Assembly (NCBI GenBank): GCA_000004695.1
Contig: CM000153.2
Span: forward strand, 2,176,001 to 2,240,000
From: Dictyostelium discoideum
Lineage: Eukaryota
DNA: 64,000 nucleotides
Direction of reading: 5' to 3'
The position numbers were made by a program, and so were the translations under genes. Within the stretch, counting starts at the first letter, position 1, and every line of letters starts with the position of its first letter. The notes beneath the pieces were generated by a model, which was not told where the DNA came from, made no database searches, and worked only from the letters and a program-made list of their open reading frames with translations. Below, in pieces: positions 47,100 to 49,310 of the stretch.

Positions 47100-49310
47100 A
47101 CAAACCCTCAACTAGATACGTAACATATAAAAAAAAGATTAAATCACCACCAAAAAAATCTTAACAGAGTAATAATGAAAGTTCTGTTTCCATAGAACAA
47201 TATGAAAAAAACCAAATCGAACAAAATAAGAGAAAAACCTTTGATTATGACCTTTCATTGACCTCAATTTTTTTTAATAATAGTAAATATAATATTGATA
47301 ATGATTCATCATTTTTCTCAGTACAATGTAATAGTTCAAATAATTTAAATAATAATAATTTCAATGAAAATAATTTAAAAAATAACAATAATAGGAATGG
47401 TAATAATAATAATAATAATAATAATAATAATAATAATAATAATAATAATAATAATAATAATAATAATAATAATAATAATAATAATAATAAAAAAAATGAT
47501 TTAACAGATACAATAAATCAAAAAAAGAAGAAAAAGAAAAGGAGAGTTAAATAAAAAATTTTAGTCAAGAGAATGAAAATAGTGATAGTGATAATGATAG
47601 TGATGATGAGGATGAATTTATAAATAATCCAGATAAAAGAGAGTAATTATATAATTTTAATTAATTTTAATTATATTAAAGATTATTAAATTTATAATTT
47701 TGAATATTAATATTTCTATTTTCTATTTTTTTTTTTTTTTTTTTTTTTTTTTTTTTTTTTTTTTTTTTTTTTTTTTTTTTTTTTTTTTTTTTTTTTTTTT
47801 TTTTTTAAAAAAAAGTTTTAAAGATTTAATTAAAAGCAAAGTTTGTACTATAATGTGTTCACCATCAATATTTTATAGTGGGGGTCTTGAAGTTTGTGTA
47901 ATTTGTATTAAAGTAATGATTCATGATGAAGATGAACTTATCAGAAAAGAATTAAAATCATTTGAAAATAAAGTTGATAACTATGTAGAAGATGGTTTTT
48001 GTTTAGCTTGTGGTCAATTTACATCTCATTATTTTAGACATTGTAATAATATTCATCAAAAATTTCATGTTTATAAAGTTATAATAGATCTCTGTAAACC
48101 TTATCCAAGAGAATGGAATAAAATCAATGGAGAATGAAGATCAATTGAATATTCCATTCAAACGTCAGGTTCAAGTCATTTATTTTTGGTAATAATGATG
48201 ATAAATCAAGTATACAATGCTTCAATTGTTTGGAATTTCATCCAATTTCCAATTATGAAAAGGGTGAAGTTATGATGTGTAAAAGAATTTGTAAGTTTTT
48301 ATTTTTTTTATAATTTTAATTATAAATTTTAAAATTTTACAAATATGTAAAAAATTTTAAAACCAAAATTAATCTTTTTTTTTTTTTTTTTTTTCTATTT
48401 TTTAAAATATTATCAGAGGCGAAACTGGTAGAAACTTTATAAAATTCTCTTGATCAAGTGCTAGGGTAAGATCTTTAAAGCACATTAAACAAGGTAGAAA
48501 AGGAGTTTTCACTCTAAATAGAAAAGTATTTGAAAAGTTATGTAATGATTGGGATGATAGATGTAGAATTACTGATGTGAAATTTATAAGAAAATATGAT
48601 CAACCAAATTCTCTTTCACCAAATAGAAAAGACAATAGTATCACTTATGATACCAAGTTTAATAAAAATGGTAGTCTCTGTTGTAATGTTGAACCAATTT
48701 TAAGAATTATGCAAAATAGAGCTAATTGGACAAGATCAAGTTGGTTATCGGTAAAAACTAAAAGAGATGAAGATATTTTCAAGGTTGTCGATTTTTCAAA
48801 TAGGTTAATGACGGATAAAGTTGAAAACCAAATCCAAACAATATATAGTTTTTCTAAAGTTAGTACCAAAAAAAAGAAATAATAGAATTAAAAGAAAAAA
48901 TGGTACAGTTGAACTTCATCAACATAATATTACCAAAGATTATTTATTAAATCTATTTATTAGTCTAGGAGGAAAATGTAATCTATCTAATATAATAATG
49001 TTGGCAGGTGAAATTAAAGAAGAAGAAAAGGTGTTCAGAATTTCTATTAATAGAATCAACAATAAGGAAGGATATATTGAAGGTAATGTTGAGTTGGTAT
49101 GTTTAGGATTCAATTCAATCGATAGATCAAATTGTCAATTATATACTGATGGTCAACAAGATTGGAACAAAACAGTTTTCAATTATATGATGAAATGTTT
49201 GGATGAATCATCAAGAAACATTTTATCAACTTCTACCTACCAAGAACATTTAAAAAGTGCAATGTCAACAATAGAAATAAATCAAATAGATTTAATAAAA
49301 AATTAGATAG
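47100..49310 (+). pseudogene. Degenerate ORF cluster, frameshifted and stop-interrupted. It has a Cys/His-rich segment and a C-terminal HNH-endonuclease-like motif, and may be a decayed mobile-element gene.
   Basis: The plus-strand ORFs 47258..47554, 47700..48137, 48577..48882 and 48821..49306 are in different frames but form one coding-looking block. They read ...CSPSIFYSGGLEVCVICIKVMIHDEDELIRKE...CLACGQFTSHYFRHCNNIHQKFHV... ; GNNDDKSSIQCFNCLEFHPISNYEKGEVMMCKRIC followed by GTAAGT ; ...GRKGVFTLNRKVFEKLCNDWDDRCRITDVKFIRKYDQPNS... ; and ...HQHNITKDYLLNLFISLGGKCNLSNIIMLAGEIKEEEKVFRISINRINNKEGYIEGNVELVCLGFNSIDRSNCQLY. The last matches the SIDRIDnskGY..gNVqlvC..cN signature of stand-alone HNH nucleases. 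There is an in-frame stop at 48453-48455 and a frame overlap at 48821-48882. Confidence 0.35.

Follow-up and report, generated by a model that had tools for sequence, protein, structure and literature searches.

Endonucleases of the HNH type belong to the His-Me finger superfamily, in which the catalytic histidine is nearly invariant (PMC5714182). Just three groups lack this residue: the Smad MH1 domains, which only bind DNA, the inactive ENPP proteins, and group 20, which contains PacI together with 78 sequences of giant viruses, 4 of bacteria and 6 of eukaryotes and has no Pfam model (PMC5714182). In group 20, a tyrosine of the loop takes the place of the catalytic histidine (PMC5714182; Jablonska et al. 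2017). Here, we describe a decayed gene for an HNH-like protein in a window of 64,000 nucleotides of Dictyostelium discoideum (assembly GCA_000004695.1, contig CM000153.2, positions 2,176,001 to 2,240,000, forward strand), to which coordinates refer unless another sequence is named. A preliminary description, made from the letters of this window alone, had seen a degenerate HNH-endonuclease-like gene at the centre of an inverted structure of tRNA genes and retroelements. According to our analysis, the stretch 47087-49306 on the forward strand is a unitary pseudogene of D. discoideum, i.e. the remains of a resident three-exon gene rather than a fresh insertion, a reading to which we give a probability of approximately 0.8. 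The ancestral protein very likely comprised approximately 590 amino acids, in which a low-complexity region at the N-terminus was followed by zinc knuckles rich in Cys and by two HNH-like units, the first degenerate and the second well conserved. The conserved unit belongs to a large family that no Pfam model covers and whose members are mostly found on giant-virus-like contigs.

Structure and Decay of the Gene

The window has a G+C content of approximately 20% and is rich in (AAT)n and long poly-T tracts. The GC fraction is 0.24 at 48001-49000, compared with 0.16 to 0.19 in the flanking kilobases, and translation of the forward strand between 47087 and 49306 yields open stretches across all three frames with stops between them, in agreement with the coding-looking block that had previously been placed at 47100-49310. 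The four frames counted at that time have to be replaced by approximately seven frame switches, as one strand has only three frames. The gene structure was derived from a DNA alignment of the window with the orthologous locus L001 (assembly GCA_054859385.1, labelled D. discoideum), which encodes the protein P0001, and from the translation of L001. The two loci are syntenic at approximately 90% DNA identity, and the decayed coding gene consists of three exons and two GT-AG introns, both of which are conserved in L001 (Table 1).

An (AAT)n tract encoding poly-Asn lies in exon 1 (47348-47490), which is an open frame of 192 codons in L001; the paralogue P0004 joins the same N-terminal region to the Zn-finger part. 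The Cys/His-rich segment noticed in the preliminary description is real and lies at 47844-48290 (CVIC; CLAC...HYFRHC; CFNC...CKRIC), with knuckles of the form C-x3-C...C-x2-C, C-x2-C...H-x3-H-C and C-x2-C-x16-C; the exact spacing H-x3-C given for it was not reproduced. The last of these knuckles directly precedes unit 1, and in the viral relatives, a C-x2-C...C-x2-C knuckle stands before each unit. The intron that had been proposed was borne out, with GTAAGT at 48291-48296 and a CAG acceptor ending at 48416; in L001, the splice joins TGT TT to A GGT in frame. The idea that splicing could remove the disruption was not, as stops or frameshifts lie inside all three exons and make an intact product impossible. 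In exon 3, the core of unit 1 has been reduced to the remnant S-P-N-R-K-D-N-S-I-T-Y...N-V-E-P-I-L-R-I-M-Q-N (48616-48717), and the core of unit 2 reads S-I-N-R-I-N-N-K-E-G-Y-I-E-G-N-V-E-L-V-C-L-G-F-N (49043-49114), with the key codons R62 at 49052-49054 (the position of the HNH histidine), Y69 at 49073-49075, N73 at 49085-49087 and N82 at 49112-49114. The C-terminal motif reported earlier is present at 49070-49123, but as GY-x3-NV-x-LVC-x3-N-x-ID and not with GY-x2-NV.

Lesions of the window copy were called relative to L001 by base-by-base alignment and amount to two premature stops and at least six frameshifts. Exon 1 carries a nonsense substitution (CAA to TAA, 47162-47164) and a 1-nucleotide deletion in the A-run 47520-47526. 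Exon 2 has an 8-nucleotide deletion after 48112 and 1-nucleotide deletions after 48167, after 48177 and, at its end, after 48286. In exon 3, a +1/-1 indel pair around 48441-48453 leads to a TGA at 48451-48453, and a 1-nucleotide insertion is found in the A-run 48868-48875.

Despite its label, the L001 assembly is merely approximately 90-94% identical to the window, flanking genes included, and further related assemblies are labelled 'Dictyostelium cf. discoideum'; at the sequence level, this divergence points to a cryptic species-level split inside the named species D. discoideum. The L001 copy of the gene carries a 4-nucleotide deletion in unit 1, an in-frame 63-nucleotide deletion that removes one knuckle (GFCLACGQFTSHYFRHCNNIH) and probably a 2-nucleotide deletion at the exon 1 donor: the phase 2 donor of the window joins the acceptor AAAAAG, followed by T, in frame, whereas the L001 donor does not. 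The window and L001 copies have no lesion in common and L001 has fewer, which indicates that the gene died independently and recently. The ratio of nonsynonymous to synonymous substitutions (dN/dS; Nei-Gojobori) between window and L001 is 0.41 for exons 2-3 and 0.50 overall, values that derive from small counts and AT-biased codons, and 0.62 for exon 3b, where dS is just 0.076. Intermediate values are expected when constraint ended part-way along both lineages. The gene is dead in D. discoideum and is decaying independently in the sister lineage; its real lesions, the retention of both introns and the syntenic orthologue are the features of a unitary, non-processed pseudogene.

Two explanations compete with the death of the gene. 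The frame breaks could be sequencing or assembly errors, for instance in homopolymer runs, in a gene that is really intact; indeed, two of the frameshifts sit in A-runs, and the window stems from a draft-quality assembly with four 100-N gaps (45003-45102, and at 2481, 19412 and 24851). However, the lesions include a nonsense substitution, an 8-nucleotide deletion and indels outside homopolymers, and all of them are identical in L002 (GCA_054883475.1), an independent, gap-free, chromosome-level assembly of a different D. discoideum strain that is collinear with the window from 45103 to past 59000 at 99.7-99.8% identity. Over the whole gene, the two differ solely in the length of the intron 1 poly-T tract (47726-47806; 81 nucleotides in the window and 55 nucleotides shorter in L002). 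The lesions are therefore real and present in both D. discoideum assemblies examined, as the earlier view of a degenerate gene requires, and the chance that sequencing error accounts for them, an idea refuted by the identity of L002, is next to nil. It is also very unlikely that the locus still makes a functional short protein, be it the AX4 hypothetical protein DDB_G0284709 (Q54PE4, 102 amino acids), an exact translation of 48998-49303, or the product of a 161-codon open reading frame (ORF) at 48821-49306 with most of unit 2. Unit 2 is the best-preserved part and has an intact core motif, the dN/dS of exon 3b comes with the low dS given above, and gene prediction yields products for the region in three assemblies. 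The 102-amino acid product, however, starts at M44 of the unit and is devoid of the helix and the Q.G.C.xS lead-in of the domain core, the 161-codon ORF has no ATG start, a dN/dS of approximately 0.6 reflects relaxed constraint, and the gene models disagree between the assemblies and merely bypass the lesions by invented introns. The AX4 annotation covers only the last 102 codons of the dead gene, and a literature search returned nothing specific on DDB_G0284709, on HNH proteins in Dictyostelium or on PacI in connection with giant viruses.

Table 1. Features of the locus and spacing between the six gene copies and their downstream tRNA genes.
Feature	Sequence	Position	Strand	Evidence or remark
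Upstream region (promoter/5' untranslated region)	window	46857-47086	+	Homology to L001, L009 and L010 begins here (blastn/alignment)
Exon 1 remnant	window	47087-47642	+	ATG at 47087; low-complexity N-terminus; acidic Ser/Asp tail
Intron 1 (GTAATT...AAAAAG)	window	47643-47815	+	Phase 2; in-frame join ...DKR-D-FKDL...
Exon 2 remnant	window	47816-48290	+	Cys/His-rich knuckles
Intron 2 (GTAAGT...TATCAG)	window	48291-48416	+	126 nucleotides; conserved in L001
Exon 3 remnant, both HNH-like units	window	48417-49306	+	Stop TAG 49304-49306
Unit 1, degenerate HNH-like	window	48454-48717	+	Collinear match to non-Dictyostelium family profile
Unit 2, well-preserved His-less HNH (beta-beta-alpha)	window	48869-49198	+	
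DDB_G0284709, annotated stretch	window	48998-49306	+	P0153 identical to window translation, MLAGEIKEEEK... through stop
Left tRNA-Ser(GCU)	window	44196-44278	-	ARAGORN; outer end of left arm
Left arm, TRE5-A-type copies/fragments (non-long-terminal-repeat)	window	44326-46486	+	ORF1 starts three times: 44462, 45152, 45913
Right arm	window	50536-51123	-	39-bp tandem repeat and inverted TRE5-A fragment
Right tRNA-Ser(GCU)	window	51630-51712	+	ARAGORN; same strand as dead gene
Window copy to tRNA-Ser	window	49306-51630		2.3 kb downstream
L007 copy to tRNA-Val	L007	7778-7866		Approximately 90 bp downstream
L008 copy to tRNA-Met	L008	7082-9958		2.9 kb downstream
L009 copy to tRNA-Trp	L009	6942-6957		15 bp from last tblastn-matched residue; DNA homology stops approximately 38 bp away
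L010 copy to tRNA-Trp	L010	6522-6592		70 bp downstream
L011 copy to tRNA-Trp	L011	7924-8722		0.8 kb downstream

A Protein Family Shared with Giant Viruses

The piece 48869-49303 is matched by the PHROGs profiles phrog_3322 ('endonuclease', E 1e-10), phrog_3118 ('HNH endonuclease', E 5e-8), phrog_1400 ('Srd anti-sigma factor', E 6e-5) and phrog_1035 ('endonuclease VII', E 2e-3). Unit 1 had no PHROG match, and an NCBIfam scan of the stitched translation and its pieces gave no relevant match. An exhaustive HMMER search, for which the exact window pieces aligned with P0001 served as query, yielded 854 relatives at E<=1e-3; in word-indexed protein searches, the stitched protein matched solely the orthologue P0001 and the family profile gave 21 matches, few of which are named. 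Outside the Dictyostelium fragments, the relatives have 300 to 600 amino acids and usually contain two copies of one unit, which consists of a C-x2-C...C-x2-C knuckle, a basic helix, the lead-in L..L...Q.G.C.YS, the core signature S-x-(E/D)-R-x-(D/N)-x3-G-Y-x3-N-x-x-L-x-C-x-E-F-N and often WS..K, in this order. A Pfam domain was found in none of the ten relatives scanned. Against a profile built from non-Dictyostelium units only, unit 2 reaches 95 bits (E 1.4e-31), a score that puts the C-terminal homology far above chance. The upstream piece 48454-48879 matches the same profile collinearly with 12.5 bits (E 5e-6) and is therefore taken as a degenerate first unit, and unit 1 of the paralogue P0004 scores 17.9 bits (E 1e-7).

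Two contigs that encode relatives, L003 and L004, are giant-virus-like, with densely packed, intron-less genes that mostly have no Pfam match; such contigs also carry a dNK/thymidylate kinase, a ribonucleotide reductase with a LAGLIDADG intein, Sel1 and MORN repeats and a DEAD helicase. One relative is located on a 359-kb IMG/VR contig, and a locus search with a single viral protein found two loci. Foldseek against predicted viral structures (BFVD) returned, at 24-32% identity, proteins from Klosneuvirus, Fadolivirus, Pithovirus LCPAC (one labelled 'Zn-finger protein'), Yasminevirus, Edafosvirus, Tupanvirus and others, as well as phage proteins including T4 Srd-like 'anti-sigma factors'. The latter share the His-less HNH-like unit both by profile (phrog_1400, see above) and by predicted structure (BFVD A0A7L7SH49, A0A192YAE3, A0A076G6U1), which suggests that the Srd family includes a domain of this kind. 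In the metagenomic relative P0016 (631 amino acids), GIY-YIG- and AP2-like sequence can be seen by eye downstream of the two units; by this resemblance, P0016 would be a candidate fusion with further homing-endonuclease-type domains.

Predicted Fold and Active Site

The AlphaFold2 model of 48869-49303, which was built with 21 sequences, reaches predicted local distance difference test (pLDDT) scores of 88 to 97 over residues 21-80 of unit 2. It comprises a helix (23-32), two strands (57-62 and 74-78) and a further helix (79-82), and thus has the beta-beta-alpha core of the HNH/His-Me finger superfamily. Foldseek of the unit model against the PDB gave nothing significant, the top matches being Cap5, Cas9 and McrA, and a PDB sequence search with a two-sequence profile produced no match. 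The weak PDB sequence matches of the family profile (E 0.01-0.08) are Cas9 HNH domains, which are found via the L..L..Q.G.C.YS lead-in. An hhalign comparison of the family profile with the HNH domain of SpCas9 was not significant, and the catalytic positions were therefore placed by the topology of the model.

R62 terminates strand 1 of the model and corresponds to the catalytic histidine of HNH nucleases, N73 precedes strand 2 and N82 lies in the helix. A pattern that leaves the His-equivalent and the loop positions free collected 234 units: the His-equivalent residue is arginine in 217 of them and histidine in none, and the loop residue after the glycine is tyrosine in 223. N73 and N82 are invariant in the alignments A5 and A7, as is the G-Y in the loop. 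The family thus has the asparagine before strand 2 and the Asn/His at the helix start that are typical of the superfamily, with arginine in place of the catalytic histidine at the end of strand 1. The preliminary assignment to the HNH nucleases consequently holds for the fold, as judged from PHROGs, the family profile and structure prediction, and fails for a canonical HNH site. The absence of histidine and the presence of a loop tyrosine are the marks of group 20, whose giant-virus-heavy distribution and want of a Pfam model are shared by the family; the Cys pair in the helix (C-x2-C-N), which is part of the zinc sites of PacI, is absent. PacI 91-113 (VDRSDSFEGYSPQNARLACFICN) was the only PDB match to the core profile (E 0.31), and the structural similarity to PacI had a Foldseek E value of 2.2. 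The family can be called PacI-like in its active-site signature and its distribution, a likeness that falls short of demonstrating homology to PacI itself.

It is tempting to speculate that the ancestral protein bound DNA under the guidance of its zinc knuckles and was most likely a sequence-specific endonuclease, in which catalysis would depend on the loop tyrosine and one metal ion held by the helix asparagine, as in PacI. From the signature, we infer a Tyr-dependent, site-specific nuclease activity of the family; a purely DNA-binding role, for which the MH1 domain would be the precedent, is a possible alternative function.

Dispersed Copies and the Inverted tRNA Arms

The preliminary description had also suggested a search for intact paralogues. 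No intact copy was found among the Dictyostelium-group relatives examined, in a search that was not genome-exhaustive, and the other copies are all fragments. L007 (P0004, 588 amino acids) extends from the N-terminus through the knuckles to unit 1 and lacks unit 2. At 7778-7940 of L007, the reading frame leaves the linker that follows unit 1 and continues directly into a tRNA-Val(CAC) gene; the C-terminus of the predicted 588-amino acid protein ACTFIW_009550 is therefore spurious. L008 (P0003) has nothing before unit 1 and one frame switch, L009, L010 and L011 have large deletions, and a second AX4 fragment is annotated as DDB_G0279235 (72 amino acids). In L009, a gap of approximately 128 nucleotides at the position of intron 2 indicates that the intron was kept and that this copy is not of the processed type. 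Downstream of each of the six Dictyostelium copies, a tRNA gene occurs on the same strand at a distance of 15 bp to 2.9 kb (Table 1), and the flanking genes differ among the loci. The copies are cut at varying points on the tRNA side and have a common distal boundary (approximately 46857-46873), and the paralogues are 80-89% similar to the window copy, on par with the true orthologue. Terminal repeats, target-site duplications, a target site or a poly(A)/poly(T) boundary were not found at the copy junctions examined. The 34-Mb genome contains approximately 400 tRNA genes; by a crude null calculated from these numbers, a same-strand tRNA gene within 3 kb downstream would be expected at approximately 2% of random sites. 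In L009 (6001-12302), the fragment lies 458 bp upstream of a ComC-family gene on the same strand, and the window copy is similarly located upstream of a ComC-family gene that starts at approximately 52.3 kb. Co-duplication with this neighbour was considered for L009 and rejected, as the ComC genes are 72-75% and the gene fragments 80-88% similar; the adjacency may be coincidental.

The dead gene lies between two tRNA-Ser(GCU) genes, which are identical in sequence and mutually inverted. The retrotransposon TRE5-A is found approximately 50 bp upstream of tRNA genes with its 5' end toward the tRNA gene and has a 200-bp A-module, an ORF1 and an ORF2 with reverse transcriptase (PMC3159450). The left element of the window starts at 44326, 48 bp from the tRNA-Ser gene's 5' end (44278) and head to head with it. 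In L002 (1-6900), the gap at 45003-45102 is filled by a full-length element with an ORF1 of 444 amino acids and an ORF2 of 1047 amino acids containing RVT_1, and approximately nine tandem copies of a 199-bp unit are present, which is probably the A-module. The assignment of the arm elements to the TRE5-A type would thus follow from their fit to published features rather than from a reference sequence. In the right arm, a fragment at 50738-51120 matches 46434-46042 at 84% in inverted orientation, and 39-bp tandem repeats occur in both arms (left, 46309-46486; right, 50536-50841, 7.9 copies). These repeats open with a copy of the tRNA 5' end (compare 51586-51627) and resemble serially duplicated tRNA 5' boundaries. 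When L001 is aligned with the window, both flanks are reversed and the central block 46857-49428 runs forward, i.e. the segment between the tRNA genes (44279-51629; L001 6608-12771) is inverted between window and L002 on the one hand and L001 on the other. Homology between window and L001 breaks approximately 40 bp upstream of each tRNA gene, inside the inverted arms. The orientation of the window is confirmed by L002, and that of L001 comes from one assembly. The inversion probably arose by recombination between the inverted tRNA/TRE5-A arms.

Alternative Explanations for the Locus

Several observations weigh against reading the locus as the unitary pseudogene of an HNH-like gene of giant-virus type. 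Neither the stitched translation nor its pieces matched the HNH, HNH_3, Endonuclease_7 or zinc-ribbon models of Pfam even at E<=10, a result that, by the literal criterion of the preliminary description, speaks against its HNH reading. The model of full-length P0001 has a mean pLDDT of 50 and is uninformative on unit 1 and the knuckles, and the evidence for unit 1 is a weak profile match. In the Dictyostelium copies, N-R replaces the E-R of the family, and leucine stands at a nearly invariant glutamine position in the window copy; given these deviations, the resident protein may never have been catalytic. A PacI-type mechanism would be deduced from the motif, with a PacI match of E 0.31, and a giant-virus origin would be argued from contig content and named structural neighbours rather than from a phylogeny. 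Furthermore, the constant tRNA neighbourhood is not accounted for by a plain dead host gene.

The latter observation leads to the alternative that an endonuclease gene, mobile or mobilised, landed upstream of tRNA genes and left the copies as its relics, either self-targeted or as a promoter-plus-gene unit of approximately 2.4 kb repeatedly carried or captured at TRE5-type breaks approximately 50 bp upstream of tRNA genes. This is conceivable but unlikely. The same-strand tRNA gene just downstream in six of six loci with differing neighbours, the variable truncation of the tRNA-proximal end together with the common distal boundary, a similarity of the paralogues that resembles that of the orthologue and points to recent dispersal, and the multi-copy state of the relatives in giant viruses are all in its favour, and the tRNA association of all copies lends some indirect support to the earlier notion that this may be an independent decayed mobile element. 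However, neither terminal repeats nor target-site duplications nor a poly(A)/poly(T) boundary were found, the intron 2 kept in L009 excludes ordinary processed copies, and the orientation is opposite to that expected if TRE5-A had mobilised a sense RNA. It was also considered that an antisense read-through RNA was moved by TRE5-A in an orphan 3' transduction, which would fit introns, truncation and orientation; this idea is weakened by the C-module of TRE5-A, which is essential for retrotransposition (PMC3159450). In addition, repeats and debris gather near tRNA genes in this genome, survival bias may contribute, and the null expectation was derived from genome-wide tRNA numbers rather than from a computed control. 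A homing element, which had been suggested as the context, is not obvious either: the resident gene has introns of its own, lies outside any intron or intein, is preceded by its own upstream region and has dispersed copies, each beside a tRNA gene. We regard it as doubtful that the D. discoideum group once hosted a giant-virus-derived, PacI-like (Tyr-dependent, His-less) endonuclease gene that was selfish at the DNA level and homed upstream of tRNA genes, with the six decayed tail-to-head copies as its fossils; the region just upstream of tRNA genes is the 'safe haven' used independently by the TRE5 and DGLT-A retroelements. Highly unlikely is the proposal that cleavage of the locus by the nuclease once gave rise to, or promoted, the inverted arrangement of tRNA genes and retroelements. 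The gene does lie between the arms, the central segment is truly inverted between two genomes and the protein family has a nuclease fold. However, any single gene inside a tRNA pair would look central, the locus shows no signature of a cleavage site, and the protein family lacks the canonical catalytic residue, with the Dictyostelium copies deviating further from its consensus. The breakpoints lie in the inverted tRNA-Ser/TRE5-A repeats, with identical tRNA genes and TRE5-A at its usual sites; homologous recombination between these arms suffices for the inversion, and nothing was found that implicates the encoded protein.

Implications

Read as a unitary pseudogene, the locus calls for a correction of the annotation: DDB_G0284709 is the tail of a dead gene from an unnamed, Pfam-less, His-less HNH-fold family that is abundant in giant viruses. 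The gene would represent a giant-virus-type gene that turned into an ordinary amoeba gene with introns before sister lineages lost it independently. The family has a clean signature (S-x-E-R-x-D...G-Y...N...C-x-E-F-N), usually in two knuckle-bearing units, with PacI as the only characterised relative, and this signature opens the hypothesis of a tyrosine nucleophile to testing in the viral proteins. The Dictyostelium genome is famed for tRNA-targeted retroelements. If the tRNA-adjacent placement of the copies is no survival artefact, it would reveal a new kind of tRNA-targeted DNA mobility, and this association could be the sole part of the finding that goes beyond routine.

Comparison with Known Systems

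Smad MH1 is a His-Me finger that lost the catalytic histidine and was kept as a sequence-specific DNA-binding module (PMC5714182). It also has no substitute tyrosine, whereas the family described here keeps the near-invariant loop tyrosine and both asparagines, and there is no detectable sequence relationship between the two. With Cas9-type HNH domains and with EcoKMcrA, Septu PtuB, CBASS Cap5, retron HNH and T4 endonuclease VII, the family has the L..L...Q.G.C.YS lead-in before the beta hairpin in common, and both asparagines of the H-N-N motif are conserved. The general-base histidine of these nucleases, however, is absent throughout the family, with arginine predominating, no Pfam HNH model recognises the window sequence and the alignment to the HNH domain of SpCas9 is not significant. 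The phage proteins of phrog_3322, phrog_3118 and the T4 Srd-like phrog_1400 give significant profile matches over the core unit and are structural neighbours in BFVD. Bacterial and phage-like relatives have S-x-D-R-x-D...G-Y...N-V-V-L-C-C...N and are likewise His-less; the phage proteins have a single unit, often with a helix-turn-helix (HTH)-like N-terminus, and their functions are database labels.

PacI (PDB 3ldy/3m7k) shares with the family a beta-beta-alpha-metal fold without catalytic histidine. In both, strand 1 ends with (D/E)-R, the loop contains G-Y, and one asparagine lies before strand 2 and another in the helix; the PacI segment VDRSDSFEGYSPQNARLACFICN aligns to the family core at all invariant positions. 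Group 20 also resembles the family in having no Pfam model and mainly giant-viral with few eukaryotic members. The similarity of PacI to the family is not significant (E 0.31 by sequence, 2.2 by Foldseek), and the architectures differ: PacI is a bacterial homodimer of 142 amino acids with a single unit, an HTH-like N-terminus and a C-x2-C-N helix, whereas the family has C-x-E-F-N and usually two units, each after a C-x2-C...C-x2-C knuckle. The window copy, a eukaryotic pseudogene with introns, reads C-L-G-F-N at this position and retains the first cysteine alone. Further close counterparts are ORFs, uncharacterised or labelled 'Zn-finger protein', from Klosneuvirus, Fadolivirus, Yasminevirus, Edafosvirus, Tupanvirus and the Pithovirus LCPAC metagenomic viruses, which contain the same unit at the identities given above, and the metagenomic relatives on giant-virus-like contigs, which have the two-unit-plus-knuckle architecture of the Dictyostelium gene. 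The viral genes are intact and intron-less and keep E-R, whereas the Dictyostelium gene has two spliceosomal introns, a poly-Asn N-terminus, N-R and a degenerate first unit, and is dead.

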